Assembly: GCA_964524325.1 (NCBI GenBank)
Contig: CAZGCT010000001.1
Coordinates: forward strand, 172,164-236,163
DNA from: an uncultured Hyphomicrobiales bacterium
Lineage (GTDB): Bacteria; Bacteroidota; Ignavibacteria; Kapaibacteriales; UBA2268
Direction of reading: 5' to 3'
Length of the DNA: 64,000 bases
The notes below the pieces were generated by a model that was not told where the DNA came from, did not search any database, and saw only the letters and a program-made list of their open reading frames with translations. A program made the translations under genes and the position numbers. Positions within the stretch are counted from its first letter, which is position 1. Each line of letters begins with the position of its first letter. Below are positions 39,406-61,080 of this stretch, piece after piece.

Positions 39406-40054
39406 TCTTTCTTAACTTTGTCCATTCATCCCAACCACCGGGATAAATAAAAACATTTTTGTAACCGAGGTGAATTAAATCGTACGAAACTTTGTGGCTT
39501 GCGTCGCAAGAACCTCCTTCGCAATAGACAATAATTACTTTTTGTGGGTCTATTGGCAAAGTTGCTATCTTTTGGAAATACAAGTTTAGGTCCTGCTCGT
39601 AGGCAAAGATATTTATAGCTTTGCCAATATGGGCTTTATTGTACTCATCTGGTGAACGTGCATCAATTAGTATGAGATTTGGAGACTCAAGGTATTTAAT
39701 TAATTGATTGTAGGTAACAATGGGAATTTCATCTGAACGTTTTTGAGGATTGATTTTATCAACTTGCTTTTGTTCTATTTGGGTTGCTTTCTTTGCTTTC
39801 GTTGTATCCTTTAAAGTAAAAGTAGCTGTGTCTAATTTTTTTATATCTTCTTTGCTTGCAGTTTCTTTTGGGGGTACATTCGAAATTGTATCAGAAAGAA
39901 GTTTTTCTAATATTGTGTCCGAAACTATTGCTGGTTTCTTAAATAAAATAATTCCAGACGGGTTTAAATAGTTGTAAATTACAGCAACGAAAGAAGTTAA
40001 GCCTAAAATAAAAAGAGCTTCTCTGGAAATTTGTTTCCAATCTATTTTGCGCAT
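39392..40054 (-). CDS. membrane-anchored rhodanese-domain protein
   Basis: An N-terminal TM helix is followed by a rhodanese fold (LIDARSPDEY). The active-site loop is VYCEGGSCD. The gene overlaps the activator gene by 14 nt. Confidence 0.7.
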   Translation of the reverse strand: MRKIDWKQISREALFILGLTSFVAVIYNYLNPSGIILFKKPAIVSDTILEKLLSDTISNVPPKETASKEDIKKLDTATFTLKDTTKAKKATQIEQKQVDKINPQKRSDEIPIVTYNQLIKYLESPNLILIDARSPDEYNKAHIGKAINIFAYEQDLNLYFQKIATLPIDPQKVIIVYCEGGSCDASHKVSYDLIHLGYKNVFIYPGGWDEWTKLRKNANE

Positions 40055-43544: not shown

Positions 43545-44211
43545 GAAAGTTTATATCTATTCTGCATACGAGAGATTTTGGCATTGGACTCAAGCAATTT
43601 TGATTTTCTTTTTAGCCTTCACTGGCTTCGAGGTACATGGTGTTTATATTTTCTTTGGGTACGAAAATGCTGTAATTTACCATAGAATTGCTGCCTATCT
43701 TTACATCATATTGGTTATTTTCACTATTTTTTGGCATTTTGCTACAGGACTATGGAAACAGTATATTCCTACGCGAAAATTCATTAAGGAACAAATTGAG
43801 TTTTATATTACCGGTATTTTTCGTAATGCTCCTCATCCTATTAAAAAGACTGTTTTAAGCAAACTTAATCCATTACAAAAGCTTACTTACTTTGCATTAA
43901 AAGTTTTGGTAATTCCAATAGTGGGTACATCTGGTTTATTCTATCTTTTTTATCGGTACCAAACCGACTTAGGGGTACAAGCAATTAATATTGCTTCATT
44001 GAAATACATTGCAATAATTCACACCGCCGGTGCAATTTTGCTGGTTGCTTTTATTATTGTGCATATTTATTTAACTACAACTGGAACTACTATTTTTTCA
44101 AATCTAAATGCTATGTTGACTGGGTACGAAGAAATAGAAACAAAGGAAGAATCGGATAAAAATTTCGTCCAGAAATCAGAGTTGCCGGTTCAAAATTTAG
44201 AAGAAAATTAA
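43537..44211 (+). CDS. cytochrome b561/HydC/FdnI-family membrane b-type cytochrome subunit
   Basis: RFWHWTQAILIFFLAFTGFEVHG and four TM helices carrying His ligands are present. The gene overlaps the cytochrome c gene by 8 nt. Confidence 0.7.
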   Translation: MGRKVYIYSAYERFWHWTQAILIFFLAFTGFEVHGVYIFFGYENAVIYHRIAAYLYIILVIFTIFWHFATGLWKQYIPTRKFIKEQIEFYITGIFRNAPHPIKKTVLSKLNPLQKLTYFALKVLVIPIVGTSGLFYLFYRYQTDLGVQAINIASLKYIAIIHTAGAILLVAFIIVHIYLTTTGTTIFSNLNAMLTGYEEIETKEESDKNFVQKSELPVQNLEEN

Positions 44212-44232: not shown

Positions 44233-44754
44233 GTGAATATGGAAACACAAAAGTATATGAATCCTTACTTGGCGGGCTTGTTGTTAGGTTTGTTGTTACT
44301 TTTTACTTTTTTTATCACTGGTCGTGGTTTGGGTGCAAGTGGTGCATTCAAAAGCCTTACAGTTGCTACAGTCCAAAGCATTGCCCCTGGACATTCAAAT
44401 AATTCTAAATTCTACAAGGAATATTCCGAAGAGCATTCTGGAAATCCCTTGATGAACTGGCTTGTCTTTGAAATTTCGGGTGTCATTATTGGGGCTTTTC
44501 TTTCTGGACTTGCATCCAATAGATTGAAACTTCAATTGGAAAAAGGACCGAGGTTGTCTTCGAACACAAGAATAATCGCAGCATTTCTTGGTGGGGTACT
44601 TTGGGGAGTTGGTTCACAACTTGGTCGAGGTTGCACAAGCGGTGCAGCTTTGAGCGGCCTTGCAATTATGTCCACTGGGGGTATCCTTACCATGATATCA
44701 ATTTTCGCTGGGGCCTATTTGTTTGCATTTTTCTTTAGAAAGTTTTGGATTTAA
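44233..44754 (+). CDS. YeeE/YedE-family sulfur-compound transporter, half-size subunit A
   Basis: The protein is 173 aa with 4 TM helices. The conserved loop GRGCTSGAALSGLA is present. Confidence 0.7.
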   Translation: MNMETQKYMNPYLAGLLLGLLLLFTFFITGRGLGASGAFKSLTVATVQSIAPGHSNNSKFYKEYSEEHSGNPLMNWLVFEISGVIIGAFLSGLASNRLKLQLEKGPRLSSNTRIIAAFLGGVLWGVGSQLGRGCTSGAALSGLAIMSTGGILTMISIFAGAYLFAFFFRKFWI

Positions 44755-44766
44755 TTGGGAGGATTT

Positions 44767-45996
44767 ATGGGACCACTTGTGCCAGATGTAATTAGTCAAG
44801 GGTTAAATTTTGTTATTGCATTTTTTATTGGAATTTTCTTTGGTGCGATATTGGAACAGGCAGGTTTTTCTTCTTCGCGAAAACTTGTTGGTTTGTTCTA
44901 CGGTTATGATTTTACGGTTTTAAGAGTATTCTTTACTGCTGGTGCCGTTGCAATGGCTGGAATTTTTCTTTTCCAAACATTTGGAATCATCGATATTACT
45001 GCCTTTTATATAAATCCAACTTACTTCTGGTCTGCAATAGTTGGTGGTTTAATTATGGGACTGGGATTTGTTGTTGGTGGATATTGCCCAGGAACAAGTG
45101 TTTGTGCTGCTTCCATAGGTAAGCTCGACGCAATGGTTTTCGTTTTTGGCATTATTGTTGGCGTTTTTATTTTTGCCGAAGGGTACAGTATCTTTGAACC
45201 ATTATATAAAAGTTCGTTTCTGGGTTATCCAAGAATTTTCCAAACCTTAAATATTTCTCAGCAGTTTTTTGCTTTTCTTTTGGTTATAATTGCTTTATCT
45301 GCTTTTTATTTTACAAATATTATTGAAAACAAAGTAAATAGTAAAAAGCTAAGTGCCATCAAAACTACACCTTATTTTGCAATAGTGTTAGTGATTGGAG
45401 TTGTTATTGCTTTTTCTTCCTTTACTTTTTACGATAAAAAGGAGATGATATTAAGTTTAACGGAAAATCCAGAATATGTTGTCTCTGCAACTGGTATTTC
45501 TTGCTCCGATACTAATCCAAATCCAAATTCAATTTGCCCTGACGAATTTGCTCTTATCTTAATTAGAATCCTTGAGTTTAAAAACATTAAAATTTATGAT
45601 TTCAGACCCACAGAAGATAGACAAAAACTACCATTTCCAAAATCTATACCCTCAACAATTGATGATTTGTTTTCTAAAGAATTCAATAGACTACTTCGGG
45701 TGAGGGGCACCGAAAATATTTTTATTGCTAATGATGAATTTACAGAAAGAAAGATGGTCTTTATTGCTAAAAGTTTGGGCTACAAAAAAGTTAAGTTTTT
45801 GAAAGGTGGGGTGAACTACTTTGTCGATGAAATTTTGAATTACAAAGAAAACCCCGATCCTAGAACCCAACAAGAAATTAACCGGAACAAATTTAGGCTT
45901 TATGCTAAACAAGTATTACCGGAAATCTTTGCAAAGTCTAAGACAAATGAAGTTTCCCAAACAAAGAAGAAAAAACCTACTATGGGAGGGTGTTAG
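44767..45996 (+). CDS. YeeE/YedE-family transporter half-size subunit B fused to a rhodanese-like domain lacking the active-site Cys
   Basis: The N-terminal TM region carries GGYCPGTSVCAAS. The C-terminus has a rhodanese-like fold (KIYDFRPTEDRQ...FLKGGVNYF) with no Cys at the catalytic loop position. The start is taken at the ATG preceded by GGGAGG. The ORF track begins at an upstream TTG at 44755. Confidence 0.65.
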   Translation: MGPLVPDVISQGLNFVIAFFIGIFFGAILEQAGFSSSRKLVGLFYGYDFTVLRVFFTAGAVAMAGIFLFQTFGIIDITAFYINPTYFWSAIVGGLIMGLGFVVGGYCPGTSVCAASIGKLDAMVFVFGIIVGVFIFAEGYSIFEPLYKSSFLGYPRIFQTLNISQQFFAFLLVIIALSAFYFTNIIENKVNSKKLSAIKTTPYFAIVLVIGVVIAFSSFTFYDKKEMILSLTENPEYVVSATGISCSDTNPNPNSICPDEFALILIRILEFKNIKIYDFRPTEDRQKLPFPKSIPSTIDDLFSKEFNRLLRVRGTENIFIANDEFTERKMVFIAKSLGYKKVKFLKGGVNYFVDEILNYKENPDPRTQQEINRNKFRLYAKQVLPEIFAKSKTNEVSQTKKKKPTMGGC

Positions 45997-46080: not shown

Positions 46081-47376
46081 TTACTTTATCATGTTTCCAT
46101 AATGATCGAACATGTATTTCACAACGGCTTCGGCTTCGTTTGGTTTTAGACCTTGGTTTGGCATAGGCGGGTAATTTGGGTCTACTTTAACAGGGTTTAG
46201 AATGTACCTTACCATATCTTCTTGGCGATCCTCATATTTTTTTAATACTTCTTTGTGAGGAGGGCCAACCAATTTGGTATCGAATTGATGACAAGCAACA
46301 CATTTTGCTTTGTAAATCTCTTCCCCATTAACTTCTTTGACTGTACTGCGACCAGCACTTGCTAAAAGCTTCTCATGATATGCAATATGATCTTTTGAAA
46401 TTTTGAACTCTTGTATTTTGTTCGAAATTGCGAGGGAGGTTGCATCCGAACCAAAGAACAATAGGAAAGAGAATATTGCAGAGAAAAAGGCATTTTTGGC
46501 AAAAGTAATGCTTTTATTTTTTAATGAAAAATAACTAAATAGTAAGCAAAGTAAAAAAACAAGCAAAGAAGCTACAAGTAAAATGTAATTTTGTAGGGTT
46601 ACAAGACTTTTGGGTAAATTGACATAAATGACAAGAGAAATAATTGGAAGAATATTGCCCCAGATGATAACATTTGAAAGAGCTTTTTTAACCACACCGT
46701 TTTCTTCAGGAAAAAATTCGCCTATTTCGGAAACTTTATCCACTGTAAATGTTTTGAAAATGTAGGCTAAGGAGGAAAGGACAAAAGCAATTCCAATGAA
46801 TTGGATAATTCTGAAAATAATATTCAAATCCAAAAAATCTGCAATGTTGAAGCCAGATAAAACGAATGAATTTTGAATTGCAATTAATGAAATACCATTA
46901 GTTAAGTATATAGTAAAAAAGATTGCAATTATTGAAAGTGTTTGAAGTAATAAAATAGTCGGATTAATGTTTATTAAACTATGATTCTTTTCAAAAAAAA
47001 ATAGTATGGTCTTTAGGAAAACTACAAATAAGATGAAAAGTAGAGTGGAAGAAAAAAGTACTACAAAAAAGTCATTGGGTGCCTTTTGCATAAATTGAAG
47101 TAAGGAATAATATATCGAAAGCAAAGGAACAAACCCAAGCCCGATTAACGCTACATAGCCTCTTGCGATATACTCGATAAAGTTCCTTGCAATAGTTAAA
47201 TAGTATTCGTTTTTTGTTTTATTGGTTTTAACATAGAAATATAGGGAATAAATTACACCACCAAACAAAAAAGCAAAATAAAGGTTGAAGGTTGAAAAAC
47301 CTAAATAGAAAAATATCTCCAAAAGTTTTGAAACCTGTACTGAATGTGGAATTGCAAAAACGTTCAACGCTTCCAT
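46081..47376 (-). CDS. polytopic membrane protein with C-terminal class-I cytochrome c domain
   Basis: About 12 TM helices are followed by KAKCVACHQFD ... PPMP, a CxxCH motif plus a Met-ligand region. It is the last gene of the cox/ctaB run. Confidence 0.55.
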   Translation of the reverse strand: MEALNVFAIPHSVQVSKLLEIFFYLGFSTFNLYFAFLFGGVIYSLYFYVKTNKTKNEYYLTIARNFIEYIARGYVALIGLGFVPLLSIYYSLLQFMQKAPNDFFVVLFSSTLLFILFVVFLKTILFFFEKNHSLININPTILLLQTLSIIAIFFTIYLTNGISLIAIQNSFVLSGFNIADFLDLNIIFRIIQFIGIAFVLSSLAYIFKTFTVDKVSEIGEFFPEENGVVKKALSNVIIWGNILPIISLVIYVNLPKSLVTLQNYILLVASLLVFLLCLLFSYFSLKNKSITFAKNAFFSAIFSFLLFFGSDATSLAISNKIQEFKISKDHIAYHEKLLASAGRSTVKEVNGEEIYKAKCVACHQFDTKLVGPPHKEVLKKYEDRQEDMVRYILNPVKVDPNYPPMPNQGLKPNEAEAVVKYMFDHYGNMIK

Positions 47377-47386
47377 TTATTCTCTC

Positions 47387-48256
47387 CTAAAATTTGAGTA
47401 TTTTCTGAACTGAAATGACAAGTGAGAAAATTAAAACAAAGATGTTCAAATTTATAAATGCTATTTTATAAAAGTTTTGTGGTTGGATAACTTTAACCAT
47501 ACGGTAAATTCTTCCTAAAAATAAAACACCTAGCAAAAAAACAACGATAAACGAATAAAGATTAAAACTTTCGATAAAAGCTAATATTATCAATGCAATT
47601 ATCACAAGTGCAAAAATCCAAAAAAAAGATATTCTTGCAATTTGTAAGGAAGAAAAAATATCTGTGAGCACTGGAAAGCCAGCATTTCGATACTCTTTCT
47701 CATAAACAATTAAAAGTAACCAAAAATGTGGAATTTGCCATACAAAAAAGAAAAGGGAAATTGAAAAGATTTGAGGATGCTCAATTGAACCGCCCGCAAA
47801 TGTCCAACCTATCAAAGGAGGAATTGCTCCAATCACAGCTCCAGGGATTGCTGCAAAAGGGGTTATTCTCTTCAAAGGTGTATAAATTACATTATAAAAA
47901 ATTAAGGCAAGAAGCCCAAAAAAGAAAGGGTGTGACTTTTCACTTGAGAGAAAAAGTACAGCTAAGCCTATTGCAATTAGTGCTCCAGATATAATAGTTC
48001 CAGATGCTGGAGAAATTACTCCTTGGGGGATTGGACGAGACATTGTTCTTGGCATTCGACTGTCCAATTGCCATTCTTGCACTTGATTGAGTGCACCGGA
48101 GCCTCCAGCCAGCAAAAAAACACCAAGCCAAAGGAAAAACAAATCGAAATTAATAGAATTGTTTGCAAGTATATAACCAAGAATTGCTGATATCGATACA
48201 AATACGACAATTCGAAATTTAATCAATATTAGAAAATTCTTTAAGGTAAATTTCAT
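47387..48256 (-). CDS. ctaB: protoheme IX farnesyltransferase (heme O synthase)
   Basis: A UbiA-family fold carries the motif NQVQEWQLDSRMPRTMSRPIP. Confidence 0.8.
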   Translation of the reverse strand: MKFTLKNFLILIKFRIVVFVSISAILGYILANNSINFDLFFLWLGVFLLAGGSGALNQVQEWQLDSRMPRTMSRPIPQGVISPASGTIISGALIAIGLAVLFLSSEKSHPFFFGLLALIFYNVIYTPLKRITPFAAIPGAVIGAIPPLIGWTFAGGSIEHPQIFSISLFFFVWQIPHFWLLLIVYEKEYRNAGFPVLTDIFSSLQIARISFFWIFALVIIALIILAFIESFNLYSFIVVFLLGVLFLGRIYRMVKVIQPQNFYKIAFINLNIFVLIFSLVISVQKILKF

Positions 48257-49224
48257 TGTTTATTTTTTGCAAAGTTGATGAACAACAAATCAACAATGTA
48301 CTCTAATTCATCTTCTTTTAAGTTGTTTAGTTGTCTTGGCATTTTAATTTTTTCATAACCACTAACAATATGTAAGTCGGGGTTGATTATTGATTCCCGA
48401 ATGTAGTTCTTGTCTATAGCAACAGAAGTGTCTTTCCCATTGAAGATGACTTTTGCAAAACCCCGAGATAATTCAGAAAACGATGGACCTATGCTTTTTC
48501 TGTTGTCAATACTATGACATTGGACACAACCTTTTGCAAATAAGATTGCCTGGCTACCAGACAAGTAATCTTTATAGCCACCAGTATGAGATGCTACATA
48601 TTTTCGAAGATAATTATCGTCGACTTTACCCTCTAGCCATTGCGAAAATTCATGCTCCGGTACGACATAGACTTTTGTGTACATTAATGAATGATTCAAA
48701 CCGCAATATTCAGCACATGCTATGTCGAATGAACCAATTTCTTTCGGATGTACAACCATATAGTTTTCTCTACCAGGAATAGCGTCCTCTTTAATTCTAA
48801 AAGCAGGTATGTAAAAAGAATGGTTTACGTCTTGCGATACAATGTTGAACTTAACTGGCCTTCCAACCGGTATAAACAAAGTGTCTGTTACTTTGCCATT
48901 ATCGTAAAAAAAATTCCAAGCCCACATTTTTGCTTCGACCTTAACGTTCAGTGCGTTGGGTGGAACAATTCGCGATTCCTTGAAAACTCCATAACTGTAG
49001 AAAAACATTGTTAAGACAAGTATTACAGGAACAACAATCCAAATAATTTCAACAACCTTATTCCCCTCAATTTGCGAGGCGACTGGATTTCTCTTCCGAT
49101 TGTATTTGATTACAAAATATATCATAGCAAAAGTAACAATCAAAAGTAACGCAACTGCTATTCCTATTATATACAACATCACATAATCGACTGATTTAGC
49201 ATATTCTGTTGCCCATTGAAACAT
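48253..49224 (-). CDS. coxB: cytochrome c oxidase subunit II with fused cytochrome c domain (caa3-type)
   Basis: Two N-terminal TM helices are followed by the CuA motif CAEYCGLNHSLM. A C-terminal CVQCH heme site is present. Confidence 0.85.
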   Translation of the reverse strand: MFQWATEYAKSVDYVMLYIIGIAVALLLIVTFAMIYFVIKYNRKRNPVASQIEGNKVVEIIWIVVPVILVLTMFFYSYGVFKESRIVPPNALNVKVEAKMWAWNFFYDNGKVTDTLFIPVGRPVKFNIVSQDVNHSFYIPAFRIKEDAIPGRENYMVVHPKEIGSFDIACAEYCGLNHSLMYTKVYVVPEHEFSQWLEGKVDDNYLRKYVASHTGGYKDYLSGSQAILFAKGCVQCHSIDNRKSIGPSFSELSRGFAKVIFNGKDTSVAIDKNYIRESIINPDLHIVSGYEKIKMPRQLNNLKEDELEYIVDLLFINFAKNKQ

Positions 49225-49233
49225 TTCAACCTC

Positions 49234-49527
49234 CTACCTAAAGAAAATATCAGTTGCCGTAAGAATAAAAATTGATGCAAGCGTTACCAGTGCAACCAAA
49301 AGAAAGAACTTGAAAATTGCATCGTCGAATTTAATATGCATAAAATAGTTTATAACAAGAGTTGACTTGACAGCTGCAATAAATAAAGCTATAAACAAAG
49401 CAATCCGACCAAAATCTACACCAGCAATGGTTACTGTAAGGACAGTAAGTGAAACAAGGCTTAACCAAACAAGTACATAAGTTCCATAGGGTATTAAATG
49501 TGAGTTGTGCTCTTTTTCCATTGTCAC
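49234..49527 (-). CDS. coxD: cytochrome c oxidase small subunit IV (CoxD-like)
   Basis: A 97-aa protein with 3 TM helices, positioned between coxC and coxB. Confidence 0.5.
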   Translation of the reverse strand: MTMEKEHNSHLIPYGTYVLVWLSLVSLTVLTVTIAGVDFGRIALFIALFIAAVKSTLVINYFMHIKFDDAIFKFFLLVALVTLASIFILTATDIFFR

Positions 49528-49530
49528 CTC

Positions 49531-50211
49531 TTAGTGAATAAGATAAAACAAAGGGAACAAAAAAATCCAAATTAGATCGACAAGGTGCCAATATAATCCA
49601 GAGTTTTCGAGTTTGATATAATCCTCTTTGTTGATTTTATTTCTAGATAGGAAAACAAGCATAAATAGTAATATTATTGCACCAATAATTACGTGTAAAG
49701 CGTGGAGCCCAGTCATAGAATAATACATTCCGTAGAAAATAATCTCACCATTTGGCTTTGACAGTAACTCTGGGTTGTTCGGTGAAATTCCATGCTGAAA
49801 CTTTGCGCCCCACTCAAAATACTTAATGACAAGGAAGGCTAAAGCAAAAGCAATAGTCGAAATTAAGAAAAAAATTGAAAGAGTCTTTTTAGCTCTTTGG
49901 ATTGCTGCTATCGAAAGAGCCATAGTTAAACTACTTGTTAAAAGAATAATAGTATTTACCGTACCTAGAACAACATTCAGTTCTTGCCCTGCTATTATAA
50001 AGTCCTTTGTATATTGCAATCGATAAGACATATAAAGCAGAAATAATCCCCCAAATAAAAGCAATTCAGTAAATAAAAACAACCACATACCGATTTTGGC
50101 ACCAATAGCATCTTTGTGTTGATGTGGGTCAGAGATATGGTGGACACTCTTCTTAATTTGATTTTCGGAAAGTGCATTTGTTGTTTCAATTCTTTCCATC
50201 ATTTTTCTCAT
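49531..50211 (-). CDS. coxC: cytochrome c oxidase subunit III
   Basis: A roughly 200-aa, 5-TM protein adjacent to coxA with the subunit III-like hydrophobic pattern. Confidence 0.7.
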   Translation of the reverse strand: MRKMMERIETTNALSENQIKKSVHHISDPHQHKDAIGAKIGMWLFLFTELLLFGGLFLLYMSYRLQYTKDFIIAGQELNVVLGTVNTIILLTSSLTMALSIAAIQRAKKTLSIFFLISTIAFALAFLVIKYFEWGAKFQHGISPNNPELLSKPNGEIIFYGMYYSMTGLHALHVIIGAIILLFMLVFLSRNKINKEDYIKLENSGLYWHLVDLIWIFLFPLFYLIH

Positions 50212-51826
50212 TTATTTTTGAAAAATCGTAAGGTCCGTGATTAACTACTGGTATTGTTTTAAAATTTTCTGTCGGTGGGGGCGAGGGTATGGTCCATTCT
50301 AAAGTAACTCCTCCCCAAGGATTTGAATCGGATCTTTTTCCTTTAAAAAGTGAATAAATTAGATTGCCAAACATCATAGCAAGCCCAGCTATGAGTATCC
50401 ATGAACCAATTGTTGAAATTATGTGCAAGGTTTCGTATTCAGGAAGATAACTCCAATAACGGCGAGGCATTCCTAAGTAACCAAGAATAAACATTGTGAA
50501 ATATAGCATGTTGAAACCAATAAAGATAAATGGGGTAGACCAAATTGCTACTTTTTCATTATACATTTTTCCAAACATTTTTGGGAACCAGTAATGTAGA
50601 GCTGCAAATAAGATAATTGCTGTTCCTCCAAACATTACATAATGGAAATGTGCGACAACGAAGTAGGTGTCCGTTACGTGAATGTCTGTTGCTAATGAAC
50701 CTAAAACAAGTCCGGTTAGACCCCCAATAGAAAAAAGAAAAATGAACATCATTACGTAAATTAAAGGTGCACGCAGTTCTATAGAACCTTTGTAAAGAGT
50801 TGCTACCCAATTGAAAACTTTAACTCCGCTTGGAACAGCAACAAGAAATGTAAGCAAAGAAAATATCATTCTTGCGGTATCGCTGATACCAGAAGTGAAC
50901 ATATGATGAGCCCAAACAAAGTAACCAATTAGGGCAATCGAGAGCGAAGAGAAAGCTATAACCCTATATCCAAAAATAGTTCTACGAGCAAAAGTAGGAA
51001 TAATTTCAGATACGACTCCCATAGCAGGCAATATCATTATGTAAACTGCTGGATGTGAATAAATCCAGAAAAGATGCTGAAACAATAATGGGTCACCACC
51101 GAGTGCGGGGTCGAAAATACCAATTTGTAAAATCCTTTCAACTACAACAAGAAGAATGGTTATTCCTACTACTGGGGTGGCTACTACTTGAATCCAAGCA
51201 GTTGCATACAAAGCCCAGACAAACAAAGGCATCCTGAAAAATGTCATTCCAGGTGCTCGTAGTCGGTGTACCGTAGTAACAAAATTCAATCCAGTAAGAA
51301 TTGATGAGAAACCAAGAATGAAAGCCCCAAGCAATGGAAGAATAACATTTGTAGTTGTTCGAATGCTATACGGAACATAAAATGTCCATCCAGTATCGAT
51401 TGGGCCGCCTTGAAGAAATAAAGATATTATTGCAAAAAGTCCACCTAGGATGTATAGATACCAGGATAAAAGGTTAAGCCTCGGAAATGCAACATCCCGC
51501 GCTCCAATTTGTATTGGGAGGAAAAAGTTGCCAAAAATTGCAGGTATTCCTGGTATTATAAATAGAAAAATCATTATTACCCCGTGGAGGGTGAAAAAAG
51601 CATTGTATGTCTGTGCATCAATAATAGTTTGGTCTGGGGTAAGCATTTCGAGTTTCATCAGAAAGCCTAAAAAAACACCAACCCAGAAAAATGTGATCAT
51701 TGCTACAAGATAAAGTATACCAATTCTTTTGTGGTCTGTGCTCGAAAGCCACCCCAAAATTCCCTTCTTTGTTTCGTGTTGTGAAAGATAATTTTCAAGT
51801 GTTTCTGCAATAGTGCTATTAGCCAT
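50186..51826 (-). CDS. coxA: cytochrome c oxidase subunit I
   Basis: The heme-copper oxidase motifs WAHHMF, GHPEVY-like region and conserved His ligands are present. The protein is 546 aa. Confidence 0.9.
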   Translation of the reverse strand: MANSTIAETLENYLSQHETKKGILGWLSSTDHKRIGILYLVAMITFFWVGVFLGFLMKLEMLTPDQTIIDAQTYNAFFTLHGVIMIFLFIIPGIPAIFGNFFLPIQIGARDVAFPRLNLLSWYLYILGGLFAIISLFLQGGPIDTGWTFYVPYSIRTTTNVILPLLGAFILGFSSILTGLNFVTTVHRLRAPGMTFFRMPLFVWALYATAWIQVVATPVVGITILLVVVERILQIGIFDPALGGDPLLFQHLFWIYSHPAVYIMILPAMGVVSEIIPTFARRTIFGYRVIAFSSLSIALIGYFVWAHHMFTSGISDTARMIFSLLTFLVAVPSGVKVFNWVATLYKGSIELRAPLIYVMMFIFLFSIGGLTGLVLGSLATDIHVTDTYFVVAHFHYVMFGGTAIILFAALHYWFPKMFGKMYNEKVAIWSTPFIFIGFNMLYFTMFILGYLGMPRRYWSYLPEYETLHIISTIGSWILIAGLAMMFGNLIYSLFKGKRSDSNPWGGVTLEWTIPSPPPTENFKTIPVVNHGPYDFSKINEKNDGKN

Positions 51827-52595
51827 TTCTCACCTCTGAATTCTCTTTTTTCTTTTTAGAAATTAATATTACAAAAAATACAGCTAAGCCAAGTAGAATT
51901 AAAGTTCCAAAAACGCGTGTGAAATTGAACACATATGTTCTTCCGGTTGGGTCGTAGGAGTAACAAAATTTTAAAATGCGGTTAACTGTGGGCAATGGTA
52001 TTCCTTTGTCAGCTTCTAATAAAGCCATTTTAAAGTCGAACGGGTTAAACTCCGTTCCGAATAAATATCTTATTATTTTACCATCTGGGGAAATCGAATA
52101 CAATGCTGCACCGTGAATAAATTCTCCTTTGCCATCTGGCTTAAAGTAGAAACCTACAGATTTAGTTACTTTCATAATCGAAATACTATCGCCAACAAGA
52201 AATACCCAGCCATTTTTATCGATTTTCCGCTTAAGGCCTTTTATGTGGTTTTCTTTCCACTTTTTTGCCTTATCGTATGTTTCTGTATGATCAAAACTTA
52301 TAGTAACAAGTTGGTAGTCTTTACCGGGTATTAGATCTGTTTTATCAACTACCTCTGAGATACCAGTTAAAAGTGGACTACAAATTCCAGGGCAGTGATA
52401 ATAAACAAACATTAGTATTGTGGGTTTATTGATCAAGTCCCAAAGTTTAATTTGCTTTCCCTCTTCATTGGTAAATGAAAGATCCAGTGGGATTTTGTTG
52501 CCTAATTTTTCTACAATACCTACTTCGGGTTCTTTAATGCTTTTCAAAACCGAAGCAACAAGAAAAAATGCAAGAATAAGTAATATCCTTTTCAT
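51819..52595 (-). CDS. sco: SCO1/SenC copper chaperone
   Basis: A thioredoxin-like fold with the CPGIC motif and a downstream His is present. Confidence 0.8.
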   Translation of the reverse strand: MKRILLILAFFLVASVLKSIKEPEVGIVEKLGNKIPLDLSFTNEEGKQIKLWDLINKPTILMFVYYHCPGICSPLLTGISEVVDKTDLIPGKDYQLVTISFDHTETYDKAKKWKENHIKGLKRKIDKNGWVFLVGDSISIMKVTKSVGFYFKPDGKGEFIHGAALYSISPDGKIIRYLFGTEFNPFDFKMALLEADKGIPLPTVNRILKFCYSYDPTGRTYVFNFTRVFGTLILLGLAVFFVILISKKKKENSEVRNG

Positions 52596-52606
52596 AACTC
52601 TCTATT

Positions 52607-53512
52607 TCAATTTAGTGTTAGAATTTTATCAATGAATTGTTTTTTCTCTTGTTCACTTGAATAAATAAATTTAGGTGAAATACCATTAAGCGGAAATGTA
52701 GAAATAATTAAATCTTCTATGTTCTTGGAGTCTTTTCTGGCATTTATCAGAAAGTGGGTAAATTTGTCTAAATCCTTAATGAATTTTTTTAAATTTTCAT
52801 CATTGAGAGCCAAAGATATTGAATTTGTTTTTCCAAGAAATTGTTCATTTTCTTTTAAAATTTTGTCTATTGCTTTTGTTATTGGTATTGTTGGGGGAAG
52901 TTCATAAGTTTGTGTTACTTTGTAGGTTGTTTCCAAATCGGCAATATCCTTTTCTGAAATTTCAACAGAATCGGTATAAAACTTATTAATTTTGTGAAAC
53001 AAAGCGATTTTTTCCTTTGTAGAAAGATAGCTATAAGAGACCATGCTTGAACCTATTATTCCTTCTTGCAAGGTCTTATAAACTTGTGTGATTGTTCTTC
53101 CATTTTTCCAACCTTCTTTAGATTTGAAATTCCTTGGAGAGGGATTTAACCCCATACTTGCTAATCCATTTCCTTCCCCAGTTTCGCCGTGGCAGGAAGA
53201 GCAAGTAGTCCGATAAATTTCCTCTCCCCTCTTTATCATATCAATTGGAGGTTTGATTATTTCCTCTACTTTTATACCTTCTATTTTTCTTCCAAGCGAA
53301 AGCTCGACCTCTTTGAATTGTTTGGTTGTATCAATTTCGTCGTGGGGGGTGGTGTTCCTATAAAAATGGTCAATTTGGTCAAGGTAAGCTAAACTTATGC
53401 CAAAAATCGAAAGGAAGATAATTATAAATGAATATCCAACCCACCTTTTAGGGTCCTTAAAAACCTCTTTAAAGTTAATTTCATCATAAAAATAATCAAA
53501 TAATTTTTTCAT
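52607..53512 (-). CDS. membrane-anchored monoheme cytochrome c
   Basis: An N-terminal TM helix and a single CSSCH motif with Met downstream are present. The gene lies between actF and sco. Confidence 0.7.
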   Translation of the reverse strand: MKKLFDYFYDEINFKEVFKDPKRWVGYSFIIIFLSIFGISLAYLDQIDHFYRNTTPHDEIDTTKQFKEVELSLGRKIEGIKVEEIIKPPIDMIKRGEEIYRTTCSSCHGETGEGNGLASMGLNPSPRNFKSKEGWKNGRTITQVYKTLQEGIIGSSMVSYSYLSTKEKIALFHKINKFYTDSVEISEKDIADLETTYKVTQTYELPPTIPITKAIDKILKENEQFLGKTNSISLALNDENLKKFIKDLDKFTHFLINARKDSKNIEDLIISTFPLNGISPKFIYSSEQEKKQFIDKILTLN

Positions 53513-53588: not shown

Positions 53589-54782
53589 TTATAAATGAAA
53601 CTCTACACCTCTTTTGAGTTTTGGGTCGCCTATAGGTACGAGGTTTATCTTTTTTGCAAAGAGGTAAAAAGATGTTAGCAACAAACCAAACCCAAAAATT
53701 ATCGTAACTACTTCAAACCAATTGAAGGGTATTGATTGCTTTGAGTAAGTTGGCATAACAATCCAGAACAAGTCGTAGTAATGAGAAAAAAGTATCCAAA
53801 TAGAGGCGATTTTAAGCCTTCTTGCATCCATTTTTGCTGGTTGGGGTAACAAAAATATATAGGGTACCACAAACTTAACGAAAATAATACCGATGGAGAC
53901 ATACAGCCAGGAACCAGTGCCCCGATCTATAAACCAAAAAGTTTCTTCTGGCAAATTAGCATACCAAATCAACATAAATTGACTGAAAGCAATGTATGCC
54001 CAGAAATTGGTGAACGCGAAAAGAAGAGCTCCCATGCTATAATAATGGTCTGGACCTAATCCTTGTACTAAGTACCCCTTTTCGTTCAACATTATTGAAA
54101 ACAATGTAAAAACACTTAAAGAAGCAAGAAAAGTTCCAGCAAAATAATATACACCAAAAATAGTTGAATACCAATGAGGTTCCAGGCTCATTAGAAAGTC
54201 TATGGCGAATATTGTTAAGGTTACAGCGAAGATTGGCATAAATATAGCGGAGACAGTTATATTTTTCTTAGTGAAATTTTGACTTGGATTTACATCCTGA
54301 CTCCGAGAAAACCTGGTTATTAAGTAATAGAATAAATACCATAAAAGTAAAATTATGATAGTTCTAATAATAAAGAAATTTTCGTTTAAGTAAGGTGCTT
54401 TTCCTTTTAATATTTTGTCGGCTTGAACAGCTTCGTAATGCGACCAATGAAAAAGGGAATGAATATTAAGAATTATTGGAATAATCAAAACTGGCAAAAA
54501 CAAAATAACCGATGCATTGATTTCTGCTACTCTCCTAAATGGTACACTCCACACTGCTCCAGTAAGATATTCAATACCAATAAAGAATAATGAACCTACA
54601 CCAATGCTTGCTATCCACGCGGTTAGAATAACTAAATTGAAAGAAATTCTAGCTGGATTGAATATAAAACCGAGAATTATTCCCAACAATCCAATAGCAA
54701 ACAGCAAAAAGCCAAGCTTGAAGATTTTTTGGGGAATTTCTTTTTTCTCGTAAATAACATCAATTTTGGCATTTTCTATCAT
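53589..54782 (-). CDS. actF: alternative complex III subunit ActF (NrfD/PsrC-like membrane subunit)
   Basis: The protein has about 10 TM helices in a polysulfide-reductase-like membrane fold. The start is set at the ATG overlapping the actDE stop (ATGA). The ORF track extends to 54935. Confidence 0.7.
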   Translation of the reverse strand: MIENAKIDVIYEKKEIPQKIFKLGFLLFAIGLLGIILGFIFNPARISFNLVILTAWIASIGVGSLFFIGIEYLTGAVWSVPFRRVAEINASVILFLPVLIIPIILNIHSLFHWSHYEAVQADKILKGKAPYLNENFFIIRTIIILLLWYLFYYLITRFSRSQDVNPSQNFTKKNITVSAIFMPIFAVTLTIFAIDFLMSLEPHWYSTIFGVYYFAGTFLASLSVFTLFSIMLNEKGYLVQGLGPDHYYSMGALLFAFTNFWAYIAFSQFMLIWYANLPEETFWFIDRGTGSWLYVSIGIIFVKFVVPYIFLLPQPAKMDARRLKIASIWILFSHYYDLFWIVMPTYSKQSIPFNWFEVVTIIFGFGLLLTSFYLFAKKINLVPIGDPKLKRGVEFHL

Positions 54783-55918
54783 TGAGTATCCTCCTGTTTT
54801 GCATTTAAAGATCGCTGCAAGGCTCTTATGTAGAGAACGATAGCCCAACGTTCTTCCTCGGTTAGTTGTTTGGAATAGGATGGCATAATATTTTGCCCTT
54901 CCACAATCACATGATATATACGACCGTCGCTCCAATTTCGAACTTTATCGGTATGGATGCTTGGGGGATTCGGGAATTGCCCATTTAAACGACTATCTCC
55001 TTCCCCGCGCCACCCATGGCAGGGGCTGCAGAAAGTGTTATATTTATCTTTGCCAAGTTTTAAATTAGCTTCTGTGTACATTAATGGATTAATTAATTTT
55101 GCACCAGCTTCATCAGGTTTGCCTTTGAAAGGATAGAAAATGTCTCCACGGCTAACGGTTCCTGCAACTGGTTTTCGCATTCCAAAACCATCGGCAAAGA
55201 AATTAGAGCTTTCTTGAGGGTTCAATTTAAATTGGTTCAACATAAAGTCGAATGGTGGCAAATACAGAATTTTATTGTTGAATAAATAACCAATAGTCGA
55301 AGTTAGAGAAGCAATGAAAACAAGAAAGACAATGAATTTCCAACTGAAAACTTTAGGTTTGAAACTTAGTTCGTTTTCTTGATATTCAATATCTAATATT
55401 TCGTCCGCCTCAAATTCTTTAAATAGCCTATGAACTTCTTCGTAGCTAAATTTCGGGTCTTTTTCTTCGATAATTAAGCCACAATAGTCGGTTGAGATTA
55501 GCTGCATGTAACGTGTGTCGTTTAAAGGATGTCGATTGTTTGGAAATTTAAAGATGATGAAAAGCATTACAATCGCTGTTCCTACGGACGCAAGCAAAAC
55601 TGTAACTTCAAAAATTACTGGTACAAAAGCTGGGAAGGAGAACCAAGGTTTCCCACCAATGATAAGTGGATAGTCCACCGACATGGTCCACCATGTCAGA
55701 AGAATTGCAGAAAAGGTACCAGTGAGCCCTAAAATCAATGCAACATAACCTAAAGGGGACCATTTTAAACGCATTATTTTGGGAATACCATGGAGGGGAT
55801 AGGAGGAATGAACATCCCATTTTTTGTAACCCAACTCCACAACTTTTTTTGCAAGTTTTACTAACTTGTTAGGGTCTTTGTAAAGAGCACCAATGGCAAA
55901 AAGTTTCTTTTCTTCCAT
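54779..55918 (-). CDS. actDE: alternative complex III ActD-ActE fusion (membrane DUF3341-like domain + monoheme cytochrome c)
   Basis: An N-terminal ActD-like segment of about 170 aa with TM helices is followed by a C-terminal CSPCH monoheme domain. Confidence 0.6.
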   Translation of the reverse strand: MEEKKLFAIGALYKDPNKLVKLAKKVVELGYKKWDVHSSYPLHGIPKIMRLKWSPLGYVALILGLTGTFSAILLTWWTMSVDYPLIIGGKPWFSFPAFVPVIFEVTVLLASVGTAIVMLFIIFKFPNNRHPLNDTRYMQLISTDYCGLIIEEKDPKFSYEEVHRLFKEFEADEILDIEYQENELSFKPKVFSWKFIVFLVFIASLTSTIGYLFNNKILYLPPFDFMLNQFKLNPQESSNFFADGFGMRKPVAGTVSRGDIFYPFKGKPDEAGAKLINPLMYTEANLKLGKDKYNTFCSPCHGWRGEGDSRLNGQFPNPPSIHTDKVRNWSDGRIYHVIVEGQNIMPSYSKQLTEEERWAIVLYIRALQRSLNAKQEDTQ

Positions 55919-55925
55919 TTTGACC

Positions 55926-57287
55926 TCAATGATGTTTGGGTTGTGAATTTGGAAGCACGGCTTTTACTTCCGAAATGGATACTACTGGTAATGTGCGGAT
56001 AAATAAGATTACTAATGTAAAAAATAACCCGAAGCTACCGATTAGTATTCCTAAATCATATAAAGTTGGTTTGAAATAGTCCCAACTTGTGGGAAGAAAG
56101 TCTCGGGAAGTTGTTGTAACAACAATCACAAAACGTTCGAACCACATCCCTACATTTACCAAAACACCAATTATGAACATTGGAATGATACTTCTTCTTA
56201 TTTTTTTAATCCAGAAAAGTTGAGTGAATATCACATTGCAAGAAACCATTATCCAATAAGCCCAAGCATAATTGCCAAACGCTCTATTAATAAAGACAAA
56301 AGATTCAAGAGGATTACCACTATACCATGCGATAAAGAATTCCATCCCGTAGGCATACCCAACCATTAAACCAGTTGCAATCATAACTTTGTTCATTTTT
56401 TCGAGTGTGTCTATAGTAATAATGTGCTCCAAATCGAAGATTTTGCGAATTACAATCAAAACATTTTGAACCATTGCAAAGCCAGAAAAAACTGCTCCAG
56501 CTACAAAATAAGGTGGGAAAATTGTTGTGTGCCAACCGGGTAGGATCGAAACTGCAAAGTCGAAACTAACTATTGTATGTACCGAAAGCACTAAAGGAGT
56601 TGCAAAGCCAGCAAGGACAAGATACATCATTTCGTAATGATTCCAATGTTTATTGGAGTGTCTCCATCCAAGGCTAAAAATGGAGTAAATTATTTTCTTG
56701 ATTTTGTTTTTTGTTCTGTCCCTTAACATTGCAAGGTCGGGAATTAATCCAATATACCAAAATACGAATGATACAGTAAGATAAGTCGAGACTGCGAAAA
56801 CGTCCCAAATTAATGGAGAAGTAAAGTTAACCCAAAGATGGTGTTGGTTGGGCAGGGGGAAAAGATACCCATCGAGCCAAGGGCGACCTGTGTGGATTAA
56901 CGGAAAAAGCCCAGCAGTCATAACCGCAAATATTGTCATTGCTTCTGCGAATCGAGCGATACCCGTTCGCCACCTTTGTCGAAAGAGGAACAAAATAGCT
57001 GAAATCAATGTTCCTGCATGTCCTATTCCTACCCAAAAAACAAAGTTTACAATGTCGAAAGCCCAACCAATTGGTTGATTAATTCCCCAAAGGCCTAACC
57101 CATAGTAAAAAGTAAAACCAAGACATATAGCACCAACTAAAAGCATCGACACCGAAATACCAAGTGCCAGATAGTATTTCCATGTTGGTTTAGTTTCAAG
57201 AGGCCGTGCAATCGAATCGTATATTTGTGCTTGAGTTGGGGTGCCCTCGACAACTGTAGGTTCAATTGAATAGTCGATTTGATTCAC
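55926..57287 (-). CDS. actC: alternative complex III subunit ActC (NrfD/PsrC-like quinol-binding membrane subunit)
   Basis: A 10-TM polysulfide-reductase-like protein lying directly downstream of actB. Confidence 0.75.
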
Positions 57288-60200
57288 GCTTTATCCTCCT
57301 TTGTTTTATTTCGCAATTTGGCAATATAGGTTACGTTTGGCTTAACATTTAACTCTTCGAGTACATAATAACCGAGCTTATGATTACGCCATTTATAGAT
57401 ATCTGAATCTTTATCGTTGACATTTCCAAAGATAATAGCTTCTGCTGGACAAGCTTCTTGGCAAGCAGTTTTAACTTCGCTTCCTTTGAATTCGCGCCCT
57501 TCGGTTTGGGCTTTGTGTCTTGCGTCAGTAATTCTTTGAATGCAAAAAGTGCATTTTTCCATTACCCCGCGGGAGCGAACAGTAACTTCCGGATTATTTA
57601 GCAATTTGAGAGAATCTTGGTAAAAATAACCATTAGCAAAATGATTTCTAAAATCAAAGAAGTTGAATCTTCGGACTTTATAAGGGCAGTTGTTAGAACA
57701 ATACCTGGTACCAACACAGCGGTTGTAAATCATTTGATTTAATCCATCTGGACTATGGTTTGTGGCAACAACTGGACAAACATTCTCGCACGGTGCGTCG
57801 TCGCAATGTTGGCATAACATTGGTTGCAAACTTACCTCTGGATTATCTGGTGTTCCACTGAAATAGGTATCGATTCGTATCCATTGCATTTCGCGTCCTC
57901 GAATTACTTGATCCTTACCAACAACTGGAACATTGTTTTCCACATTGCAGGCGCTTATGCATGCTCCACAACCAGTACACTTGTTTAAATCTATTGCCAT
58001 TGCCCATTTAACGCCATGATATTGTATTTCAGGTATAATCGTGAGTTTTTGCTTTGCCTTGTGGATTTCAAACCTATCGTTTATGAAATCTTCGACCGTG
58101 CTCTCCTGAATAATATGACGAGATTTATGTAAATCTTTCACAAAAGTATCATTTAATGAATGATGTTCAACAGTGCTGGCAAATTTGTAATATCGATTTA
58201 GTTTAGTGACTTTTATATCTGATAATACCAATCCATTTTTGTAATCCTCTTTTGAAAGTAGTTGTAAGGGGTCGAAGCCAACATCTTTACCGATGGGGCC
58301 TGCATTTGTTCGCCCAAAACCTGCTTCGATAGTTAAAGTTTTTTCAGCTAACCCAGGAAGTACGAAAATAGGTGCTTCTAATGAATTGTTCTTATGTTCA
58401 ATTTTTACGAAATCACCAGTTTTTAGGTTCAGCTTATTTGCTTCGTTTTCTGAAATGGCAATGTAATTGTCCCAAGTAACTTTAGAAATTGGATGTGGTA
58501 ATTCAACCAACCAAGCATTATTCAAAAATTTTCCATCCCAAACAAAATAAGGCTTTTTAATTAGGATTGTCCATTTGCTTTCATTTTTTTTGAAATTTAA
58601 TTCTTTTAATTTTGAAAAGTCAGCATTGGGTTTAATAAATTCTTTCGATGGGAAGGAGAAAACACCGTCGTGTAGCACAGAAAACCAAAATTGTTCAAAG
58701 GGTACACCTACCTTGGTTTTTGGAAAAACTTCTGTTTCCCAAAACTTTTTTAAGTATTCGTGAAAATTATTGTTCCTCAACTTTCCATCAACGAGAGCCA
58801 GCATTATGCTTTCCTTTTGATAGGTTCCGTAGATGGGTTCTATAACCGGTTGAGAGAGTGAATAAATTGATTCTCCATCAAAGAAATCTCCCCAGCTTTC
58901 AAAATTGTGATTTATTGGGACTATATGATTGGAAAGCAGTGCAGTTTCGGTTTCACTTTCAACAAAAGCAAAAACATTTGGGACTTTTTCCATTCCTTTT
59001 GCCAGTTCGAAATCTCTTGGTAAATGGAAGACTGGGTTGCAATCCAAAATAATCAGGGTTCCTACTTTTCCAGATAATAATGAACTGGACAAGGAAGCCA
59101 GATCTTCAAATGTAGATTTTGGGATTGAAGGTTTCGGTTTATTTCTAAATAAATTGTGATTGCTTAAAATTTCGTTTAGCAAGTTGCATAGGTAATGAAT
59201 TGTATAAGGTTGAAGATCTCCAGCAAAAACAATTGAATTGCTTTGGCTACTGATTAAATCTTTTACAATCTGTTTAAGCAAATCGATTGAAATATTATTG
59301 GAATTTGCGAACTGCTCTAAATTGAAATTTGAAAATTTTTCGCGTAAGAGTGACATTGGAATACTTAAATTTGAAAGCTTTTCTGCATGCTTGGTTATGA
59401 TTTCATTAATTATGGAGGCAATCAAGTATTCATATTGACTTGGATGTAGTGGGATCCTGTAATCAGCGTTAGCACCCGTTAATGTAAAATCCGACTCTAC
59501 AGCATAGAATCTGCTAAAATTATGTATATCATTTACGTTCCTTTTTGATGCAAATTCTCTTATGTTTCGAACAATGTTGCCCTCGTTGCCAAGAAAATTG
59601 CTTTCTATGGAAACAATAACTTTTGCTTTGGTTAGGTCATAATCCAAGAGATTTGTATTCGGGTAAAAGTCAATCAAAGCTTTTTCTTTTGAATAGTTTT
59701 CCAGAAACTCGTAAGTGAAGATTTTAGTATTTGGGTATTTTTCTTTGAATTGCGATAATATCTTGGCAAAAGAGGGGGAGTAAATATGCTTCGAAATAAT
59801 TGCAATTTCTTTTCTTTCATTAACGCTATTGTTTAATACAGTCAACAATGTAGAAAAAATATTTGGAAAATCGGTTTTTTCCCACTTGCCATTTCTTTTT
59901 ATTAATGGTGTTTTGTATCTCTCCGGATCGTAAAGATTAAGAATTGTAGCTTGCCCAATGGAGCAAATTTTACCTTTATTGACAGGATGGTCTGGGTTTC
60001 CATCGACTTTAATAGGTCTTCCTTCACGTGTTTTGATTAGAATTCCACAATGATTCGGGCAACCCATGCAAGTCGAAGAATAATAATTTGCTTTGCCAGG
60101 AAGAACATTTTCTGGTTTTTGATTGTACGGAACAATATCGCCTTTATTACGATAATCTTTACAAGCAGTTGAAGTGAAAGCGAGGGTTGCTGCTGAAATT

Positions 60201-60346
60201 GCAAGAAATTTTCGTCTCGAAATACCATTCAGGTGGTTAACGTTAAATTCTTCTTTAACATCATATTGAAATTCTGTTTCTTTTAGTGTTTGAGACTTTT
60301 CAGGATTTTTTAATTCATCAAAACTCTTCCAATATTTTTTTATCAT
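57284..60346 (-). CDS. actB: alternative complex III subunit ActB (molybdopterin-oxidoreductase-like domain fused to 4Fe-4S ferredoxin domain)
   Basis: The Tat signal [13 protein letters not shown] is present. Fe-S motifs include [25 protein letters not shown] and CSNNCPY. The start is set at [12 protein letters not shown]. Confidence 0.85.
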
Positions 60347-60507
60347 GGTAAACCTATTTTTTATCAACAAATGTTTTATACAAATGCACACAAAAAGCGG
60401 ATTCTCTTTCCAGAGTTCTTCTTTAGTGAAACTAAGGGGAAATGCATTCCTAGTTTGGTGGTTTCAAAAATAATTGGCGAAAAGGTTAAATTCTTCATAT
60501 TCAGATT

Positions 60508-61080
60508 TTACCTATGACAAGCTCCGCAAAAATCTGGACCATTATTAATTTTATCTTTCAGCTCAGGCATTTTTTGGTGTGCATTTCTATGGCAATCCAA
60601 GCATGCACCCATTGTGAGTCTATGTACTTGTTGAATCTTGTCCATCTTTGCTACGTCACCGTGACAATGCTTACAATCAATTCCTTTTTGAACGTGGACG
60701 GCATGATTAAAGTAGGCAAAGTCTCCAAGTCTGTGAACACGATTCCATTTAATTGGTCGTTCGTCAGCAAAAAATTGTGCAAGTTTGATTATTTCGGGTT
60801 TGTCTTTTCTTGCAACAGAATGGCAATTCATACAAATATCTGTAGATGGGATTGTTGCAAATCTTCCTTTATCAACGCCGATATGGCAGTATTTACAATC
60901 AATTTGCATATTCCCGGCGTGAAGTTTGTGGGAAAAAGTAATAGGTTGGTTTGGTGAATACCCAACTCCATCACGCTCTGGTCTCGATACAAAAAAAGTT
61001 ACAAAATATGCCACAAGAACAACAAAAACTGTAATTGGCAGGCGAACTTTTAAAATGTAATCAAGCTGAGACTTTTGCAC
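60508..61080 (-). CDS. actA: alternative complex III subunit ActA (pentaheme cytochrome c)
   Basis: An N-terminal TM helix is followed by five CxxCH motifs. Confidence 0.8.
   Translation of the reverse strand: MQKSQLDYILKVRLPITVFVVLVAYFVTFFVSRPERDGVGYSPNQPITFSHKLHAGNMQIDCKYCHIGVDKGRFATIPSTDICMNCHSVARKDKPEIIKLAQFFADERPIKWNRVHRLGDFAYFNHAVHVQKGIDCKHCHGDVAKMDKIQQVHRLTMGACLDCHRNAHQKMPELKDKINNGPDFCGACHR

Follow-up and report, generated by a model that had tools for sequence, protein, structure and literature searches.

This report concerns one gene, and the protein that it encodes, in a 64,000-nucleotide stretch of DNA (hereafter 'the window') from an uncultured Hyphomicrobiales bacterium (GTDB lineage Bacteria; Bacteroidota; Ignavibacteria; Kapaibacteriales; UBA2268), corresponding to positions 172,164 to 236,163 of the forward strand of contig CAZGCT010000001.1 in GenBank assembly GCA_964524325.1. 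The list of open reading frames (ORFs) and their translations place there a 431-residue ORF, running from ATG to stop on the minus strand, that fills positions 46081-47376 exactly; the plus-strand frame over the same positions is full of stops and holds no ORF. The product (hereafter 'the target'), an identical copy of which (P0001) is present on a 533-kb public contig, joins a membrane domain to a small cytochrome c, and its gene stands at the end of a string of genes for alternative complex III (ACIII) and a haem-copper oxidase. The features of the gene itself are these:

46081..47376, minus strand: whole coding sequence, comprising eight-helix membrane domain, linker and cytochrome c domain; stop codon at 46081-46083
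47384..47388, minus strand: Shine-Dalgarno sequence AGGAG, read directly from the DNA, 7 nucleotides before the target ATG and overlapping the ctaB stop codon
46423..47376, minus strand: membrane domain, residues 1-318, predicted to form eight transmembrane (TM) helices in two four-helix bundles with both ends periplasmic
46330..46422, minus strand: linker, residues 319-349, a putative flexible tether (secondary structure and confidence drop in the AlphaFold2 model)
46084..46329, minus strand: predicted periplasmic class-I (c551/c8-type) monohaem cytochrome c domain, residues 350-431 (PF00034 and PF13442, both above gathering cut-offs)
46288..46302, minus strand: haem c attachment motif CVACH, residues 359-363 (Cys359, Cys362, His363)
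46162..46164, minus strand: Met405, predicted sixth haem ligand within PPMP (residues 403-406), aligned with the region of the PMP methionine of c551

The target ATG lies 10 nucleotides downstream of ctaB (47387-48256), and the gene is translationally coupled to it. Because the next gene downstream is convergent, the target, as the last gene of its minus-strand string, ends the transcription unit; a scan for a terminator downstream of it found none. The string that it closes has 12 genes, in the order ActA-B-C-DE-F, cytochrome c, SCO1, CoxI, CoxIII, CoxIV, CoxII and CtaB, and the placement given in a preliminary description of the locus, after ctaB and closing the cox/ctaB operon, stands. Proceeding upstream from the target, these genes are:

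47387..48256, minus strand: ctaB/cyoE, haem O synthase, immediately upstream of the target (PF01040, 6.8e-43; TIGR01473, 6.5e-53)
48253..49224, minus strand: CoxII with a C-terminal monohaem c domain, CxxCH at residue 233 (Pfam COX2 and COX2_TM; TIGR02866)
49234-49527, minus strand: CoxIV (Pfam COX4_pro)
49531-50211, minus strand: CoxIII (Pfam COX3)
50186-51826, minus strand: CoxI (Pfam COX1)
51819..52595, minus strand: SCO1/SenC copper chaperone (PF02630)
52607..53512, minus strand: 301-residue monohaem cytochrome c with one CxxCH (PF13442 and PF00034)
53589..61080, minus strand: the ACIII genes (Pfam ActD, NrfD, Molybdop_Fe4S4/Fer4 and Cytochrome_C7), as follows
53589-54935, minus strand: ActF
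54779-55918, minus strand: ActD-ActE fusion
55926-57287, minus strand: ActC
57284-60391, minus strand: ActB
60508-61080, minus strand: pentahaem ActA, five CxxCH

The ActF frame as listed begins at a TTG and overlaps ActDE by 157 nucleotides; its true start probably lies further downstream. The N-terminal segment of the 301-residue cytochrome is hydrophobic and is read as a membrane anchor; its c domain is paralogous to the ActE domain (35% identity, E 6e-10). It was assumed at the outset that the oxidase is a caa3 enzyme; the single CxxCH in CoxII and a CoxI of the COX1 family agree with that label, but the orthologous enzyme of Melioribacter roseus has been named cc(o/b)o3 (PMC5492636).

The C-terminal part of the target is predicted to be a His/Met-ligated, class-I, c551-like monohaem domain. 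Pfam matches span residues 350-422 (Cytochrom_C, PF00034, with 34.4 bits against a cut-off of 21.3; Cytochrome_CBB3, PF13442, with 30.8 bits against 27), and the domain occupies residues 351-430 of the AlphaFold2 model. The small class-I cytochrome c that had been recognized earlier from CVACH, GPPH and PPMP is confirmed, since all three motifs are present (GPPH at residues 371-374), the Pfam models match, and Cys359, Cys362, His363 and Met405 are each 100% conserved among 239 full-length relatives. When compared with the Protein Data Bank (PDB), a profile of 49 relatives found c551, c552 and c555 chains with E values from 1.5e-19 (a c555 construct) to about 1e-8, the c551-family chains lying at ~1e-11, and it also matched the mobile N-terminal haem region of Flavobacterium johnsoniae ActA (6btm_A, residues 48-86, E 3e-7). 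Because the score against the NCBIfam c551 equivalog model falls far below its cut-off (21 against 118), the domain is to be regarded as c551-like and not as orthologous to Pseudomonas c551. An alignment with the window CoxII c domain runs over its whole length, and it is of that type; the 301-residue cytochrome groups instead with ActE.

For the membrane part, hydropathy and an AlphaFold2 model (predicted local distance difference test score (pLDDT) 90.7, predicted template modelling score 0.78) give eight TM helices, in place of the 12 of the preliminary description, at residues 13-54, 75-96, 101-130, 139-168, 184-209, 227-252, 261-287 and 290-318. Because lysine and arginine number 11 inside and 2 outside in the window protein (family median 12 and 2), both termini are placed in the periplasm, and with them the c domain is predicted to be periplasmic. 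Between the two domains, an amphipathic helix (residues 320-340) is followed by a low-confidence loop (residues 341-350) where the pLDDT drops to 63. The predicted fold of the membrane domain is that of the cytochrome bd subunits CydA and CydB and, more distantly, of NrfD, ActC and ActF, and an earlier suggestion of a transporter-like scaffold gives way to it.

At the level of sequence, the membrane domain appears to lie outside every named family, as had been supposed from the outset. No Pfam or NCBIfam model matches this part of the window protein; 29 diverse membrane-only relatives, compared with Pfam at E values up to 10, returned only noise (Tetraspanin in four, Cyt_bd_oxida_I in one); and a sequence-profile search of the PDB found no relative. 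A membrane-only profile searched against 1.84 billion representatives collected just 580 clusters (at 50% identity), of which the best 150 matches are nearly all proteins of 420-490 residues with the same cytochrome c fusion. Such fusions are common, but the proteins are annotated just as 'cytochrome c' or 'hypothetical' and their membrane domain belongs to no named family, so that of the circumstances that would have undone the preliminary description (a known family, with a common and annotated fusion) the commonness is the part that was found.

The membrane part also diverges much further than the rest of the protein, with a median identity to the window protein of 20%, against 59% for the c domain. 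Its conserved positions are mostly structural (P10, L18, G39, S44, G81, P84, Q94, P244, P255 and Y282), and an acidic residue is found at position 311 in 91% of family members. Among the 239 relatives, residues 1-345 hold no conserved set of His, Glu or Met ligands (His at most 58%, Glu at most 45%, no Met conserved), and the membrane domain has no conserved charged residues for an ion path. The scarcity of histidine remarked on in the preliminary description is real: residues 1-340 of the window protein contain four (positions 11, 132, 330 and 334), none of them conserved. A histidine near the N-terminus, at position 15 (58%) or 11 (14%), occurs in 72% of members, and as an obligatory haem ligand it was rejected because the other 28% have none. 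The His11 version is that of a Kapaibacteria-like group that includes the window (residues 11 and 15, about 47332-47346), and either residue would sit where TM1 begins on the periplasmic side, at about the place of the His19 haem ligand in CydA.

Relatives were found by scanning one genome per species for the c-domain pattern, and 80 loci were kept. At least 365 species encode one, and their hosts comprise Kapaibacteria (the closest, at 58-59% identity), Ignavibacteria, Melioribacteraceae, Ignavibacterium, and metagenome-assembled genomes labelled Rhodothermaceae or Bacteroidota. Wherever the contig is long enough, the order ActB-C-DE-F, cytochrome c, SCO1, CoxI, CoxIII, CoxIV, CoxII, CtaB, target is essentially invariant across the 80 loci, and the same order and strand hold even around a homologue of 26% identity. 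One locus (L077) has no CtaB match between CoxII and the target, and two (L039 and L049) have a cox operon that includes the target, with no ACIII adjoining. The 301-residue cytochrome between ActF and SCO1 is kept in essentially all loci that extend so far, including those without cox genes. In two Melioribacter loci (L041 and L044, about 8440-9972) the frame stays open from the CoxII match through CtaB, 516 codons counted from the start of the CoxII match, which suggests either a CoxII-CtaB fusion or a read-through call.

The target is solitary at the end of these cox/ACIII operons and has no paired a/b partner subunit. An ordinary cydAB pair follows it directly on the same strand in four of the 80 loci (L015, 11627-14060; L023, 11377-13823; L032, 11354-13770; L045, 4336-6782), and a fifth (L037, 11389-13858) has a convergent cydA-cydB on the opposite strand. 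This proximity may reflect no more than a chance grouping of respiratory genes, or it may hint at the origin of the bd-like fold.

A CxxCH is missing from CoxII in 51 of 76 operons and occurs once in the remaining 25, while the target carries at least one in all 77 loci that have it at full length, a count biased by the choice of loci through the c-domain pattern, which cannot show how often that domain is missing. Three of these proteins (L067, 4198-5802; L071, 7064-8656; L075, 10001-11602) are dihaem forms of about 531-544 residues with two CxxCH. The membrane-only search, which is unbiased as to the presence of the c domain, yielded nine short representatives, and two of these were set aside: P0131 (L082, 1743-3090), in which a frameshift carries the c domain into the +2 frame, and P0162 (L088), whose gene is cut by the contig end. 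The split gene in L082 is an assembly error or a pseudogene, and short calls of this kind need checking.

The other seven of the nine truly lack the c domain, and they retain the conserved membrane residues. Two (P0222 and P0227) lie directly after ACIII and a cytochrome c, with no cox genes; four (P0182, P0254, P0167 and P0246) follow ACIII, a cytochrome c, a CoxIII-like and a CoxIV-like gene, with no CoxI, CoxII, SCO1 or CtaB. The arrangement of ACIII followed by a CoxIII-like, CoxIV-like and c-less trio is seen at L086 (6317-8360), L087 (7302-9344), L091 (6604-8566) and L092 (4211-6218). In L090 (8698-18086), one of the contigs of P0246, the c-less protein and a gene of CoxIV-like size are followed by ccoI-ccoS-ccoNO-ccoP-ccoG-ccoH, encoding a cbb3 oxidase. 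The seventh (P0240) stands in a full cox operon whose CoxII bears a CLACH c domain of its own. None of the seven combines a haem-less CoxII with a haem-less eight-helix protein. Judged by these gene contents, the c domain of the target behaves as the haem proximal to the oxidase: every A-type CoxI/II operon without another domain of this kind has it, and it has been lost where CoxI and CoxII are absent or CoxII has its own haem c.

Expression of an orthologue has already been recorded. In M. roseus the same ACIII-cox cluster ends in MROS_0033, the neighbour of ctaB, which was published as a 'class I soluble c551/c552 cytochrome' that takes electrons from ACIII over to the oxidase (PMC3534657; PMC5492636) and was detected in aerobically grown cells only, together with CoxI, CoxII, ActC and ActDE (PMC5492636). 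Its sole proteomic peptide, FLIDLTTFNK (residues 65-74), matches FLIDL(V/M)(V/I)TFNK at the same position in the Melioribacter loci and falls in the cytoplasmic TM1-TM2 loop. Because that peptide belongs to the membrane domain, MROS_0033 is an orthologue of the target and is not soluble; it is one of a family of ~445-residue proteins with eight TM helices, whereas the papers just cited leave its membrane domain undescribed. The published role as a shuttle from ACIII to the oxidase agrees with the reading given here.

We consider it moderately probable that the target is a supernumerary integral-membrane subunit of the chain from ACIII to an A-type haem-copper oxidase, with a tethered haem that feeds the CuA centre. 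The preliminary description had named an accessory subunit or a dedicated membrane-tethered electron donor among its options, and these are favoured because of the synteny in about 80 loci, the pattern of c-domain occurrence and the aerobic-only detection of MROS_0033. Membership in an ACIII/A-type oxidase supercomplex is suggested by the conserved synteny and by the co-detection in aerobic M. roseus cells. The eight-helix domain would be embedded next to ACIII, on the CoxIII/CoxIV side of the oxidase, or both; the chain would leave TM8 into the periplasm, where a flexible linker of ~30 residues would bear the c551-type haem with His363 and Met405 as ligands. The tethered haem would then relay single electrons from the haem-c exit of ACIII (ActA/ActE and the 301-residue cytochrome c) to the CuA of CoxII, the job proposed for the mobile N-terminal haem domain of F. 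johnsoniae ActA and done by the c domain of a caa3 CoxII. What has been observed comprises the ORF with its topology, haem-c motifs and fold, the synteny, the way in which the c domain is distributed, and the presence of the orthologue in aerobic cells; from these we infer that the protein belongs to the complex, with which partners and in which direction it exchanges electrons, and what its membrane domain does beyond anchoring.

Several points weigh against this assignment. The case for physical association and electron transfer is indirect, the proteomic record comes to one peptide, and the c-less sample is small (seven representatives). The operon encodes three other monohaem c modules (ActE, the 301-residue cytochrome and the c domain of CoxII), and the haem of the target could be redundant or could serve another acceptor. 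A folded eight-helix domain far exceeds the needs of a tether and, because c-less versions keep the conserved membrane residues, it must have a further function of its own. The most conserved residues (P10, Q94 (96%), W171, P244, P255 and D/E311) lie, by the topology given above, at the periplasmic face, where they could mark a ligand or quinone site and not a docking surface.

The membrane domain is more than an anchor, and may serve as a docking subunit, an adaptor or a ligand site, in that the bd-type eight-helix module is kept with ACIII, and usually with CoxIII/IV-like genes, after the haem and CoxI/II are gone. It is possible, and we suggest it tentatively, that the bd-fold protein forms with the CoxIII-like and CoxIV-like proteins an unrecognized membrane module of ACIII, persisting even in the absence of a nearby A-type CoxI/II (in one case just before a cbb3 operon), which would act as an adaptor for docking different terminal oxidases or would provide a quinone or cofactor site. 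The tethered haem would then be one of three interchangeable solutions for the last hop, the others being the N-terminus of ActA and the C-terminus of CoxII.

In another reading the haem is incidental: the eight-helix protein and the CoxIII/CoxIV-like proteins would form an ACIII module that docks oxidases or stabilizes the complex, the c domain being an optional addition. The persistence after ACIII of the trio without CoxI and CoxII (L086, L087, L091 and L092), the arrangement of L090 upstream of cbb3 genes and the conservation of membrane residues in c-less forms all speak for such a module. However, in operons that contain cox genes no part of the protein is better conserved than the c domain, whose haem ligands are invariant, so that it is not incidental there, and what is left of the idea largely overlaps with the tethered-relay subunit instead of excluding it; as a separate explanation it seems unlikely.

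An assembly factor, also raised in the preliminary description, is a rather improbable alternative. In this scheme the membrane domain would receive haem O made by CtaB, or would help to mature CoxI or CoxII, and the c domain would supply or remove electrons during cofactor insertion. The position directly after ctaB with an overlapping ribosome binding site, the operon shared with the copper chaperone SCO1, and an eight-helix, two-bundle architecture that superficially recalls haem A synthase are all in its favour, but a role tied to ctaB is weakened by the c-less homologues that persist in ACIII operons without CoxI, CoxII, SCO1 or CtaB. About as improbable is a cofactor- or quinone-binding module of the bd superfamily, resembling OR-C, in which the eight-helix domain would bind menaquinol or a loosely ligated haem on the periplasmic side and reduce the fused haem c, giving quinol electrons an entry to the oxidase that bypasses ACIII: the residues His19, Glu99 and Glu107 of OR-C and CydA (and His186 and Met393 of CydA) are absent, 28% of members have no N-terminal histidine, the Pfam bd models fail (one of 29 members, at E 0.15), most operons encode no partner subunit of bd type, and a complete ACIII almost always accompanies the target, which argues against a bypass.

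Beyond the operon, the plus strand of the window encodes (41943-44211) a 533-residue multihaem cytochrome c (PF11783, Cytochrome_cB, with c3/c7-type matches) and then a cytochrome b561-type membrane protein (PF01292); by their domain content, the two resemble a quinol-linked redox module in its own right, which faces the cox operon. At 44233-45996 on the plus strand, two adjoining ORFs match one half each of the sulphur-transport family YeeE/YedE (PF04143); the second has a C-terminal extension of ~200 residues without a match, and a rhodanese protein is encoded nearby at 39392-40054.

The manner in which ACIII hands electrons over to a terminal oxidase is still debated. The family described here points to a third, widespread placement of the last haem, on a separate polytopic protein encoded in at least 365 species, and shows that MROS_0033, contrary to its published description, is no soluble cytochrome. 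Its members make up an unnamed family of membrane proteins (580 clusters at 50% identity) with the fold of bd subunits and no conserved cofactor ligands. The c-less relatives alongside ACIII and CoxIII/IV-like genes offer a testable handle on supercomplex architecture in the cultured M. roseus and Ignavibacterium album.

Among known membrane proteins, haem A synthase (CtaA/COX15) was rejected as a relative, since the target has neither His pairs in both four-helix halves nor a match to the COX15-CtaA profile. A recent duplication of ActC or ActF was likewise rejected (hhalign probability <1%, against 96.7% for an ActC-ActF control), and the target shows neither a PF03916 match nor profile similarity to ActC/ActF that would place it with the NrfD-like proteins. 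The comparison with CydA and CydB is closer in fold than in sequence: identity is 10-14%, neither PF01654 nor PF02322 matches, and the target has eight helices against nine, a fused haem c and, in most loci, no adjoining CydA-type partner; with no PF02322 match and mostly no co-encoded CydA it lacks the marks of a CydB. PF01654 matched the one of 29 family members mentioned above, and hhalign gave a probability of 1.1% against CydA and at most 1.1% against CydA/CydB, where a CydA-CydB control also fails (0.3%), so that ancestry is not decidable by hhalign.

Within the cytochrome bd superfamily, Murali, Gennis and Hemp (bioRxiv 10.1101/2021.01.16.426971) describe OR-C1a and OR-C1b, in which eight TM helices are followed by a periplasmic haem c extension at the C-terminus. 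His19, Glu99 and Glu107 are retained in the OR-C proteins, which are found as a/b pairs in Desulfobacterota, Acidobacteria and Campylobacterota, and the residues that define CydA/qOR add His186 and Met393 (bioRxiv 10.1101/2021.01.16.426971 and its supplement). The target shares with OR-C the eight TM helices in the two four-helix bundles of the bd fold and a C-terminal, predicted periplasmic haem c and, with OR-C1b in particular, an annotation by the cytochrome c part alone. In contrast, the target family has none of these ligand and proton-channel residues (His19, Glu99 and Glu107, or the His186 and Met393 of qOR) and no detectable sequence similarity to OR-C, and the target is a solitary protein of ACIII/cox operons that is found in Ignavibacteria, Kapaibacteria and related Bacteroidota.

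Tethered haem c relays are also known from other ACIII-linked oxidases. In F. johnsoniae (PDB 6BTM), an unresolved, mobile N-terminal domain of ActA, which holds the sixth haem, has been proposed to carry electrons to aa3, and ActE is dispensable (PMC8552683). In Rhodothermus marinus, the c domain of CoxII carries electrons to the oxidase (PMC8552683). Like the target, the F. johnsoniae ActA N-terminus and subunit II of caa3 (R. marinus; Thermus, 2YEV) use a flexibly tethered class-I monohaem domain to bridge the ACIII haems and CuA. The window ActA has only five haems and no sixth, mobile domain of this sort, and the haem of the target differs from both relays in hanging on a separate eight-helix protein, with the c domain of the window CoxII present too.

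Membrane-anchored cytochromes c, such as cytochrome cy of Rhodobacter, c552 of Paracoccus and c550/c551 of Bacillus, also carry electrons from complex III to an oxidase. They work in the same way, with a class-I haem c held at the membrane, and the target has the linker and class-I c domain of this class; their anchor, however, is a single TM helix or a lipid, whereas that of the target is a folded eight-helix domain which also exists without a haem domain. That a class-I cytochrome c held at the membrane can link complex III with an oxidase is known already; what is new, as a described entity, is the eight-helix, bd-fold carrier.

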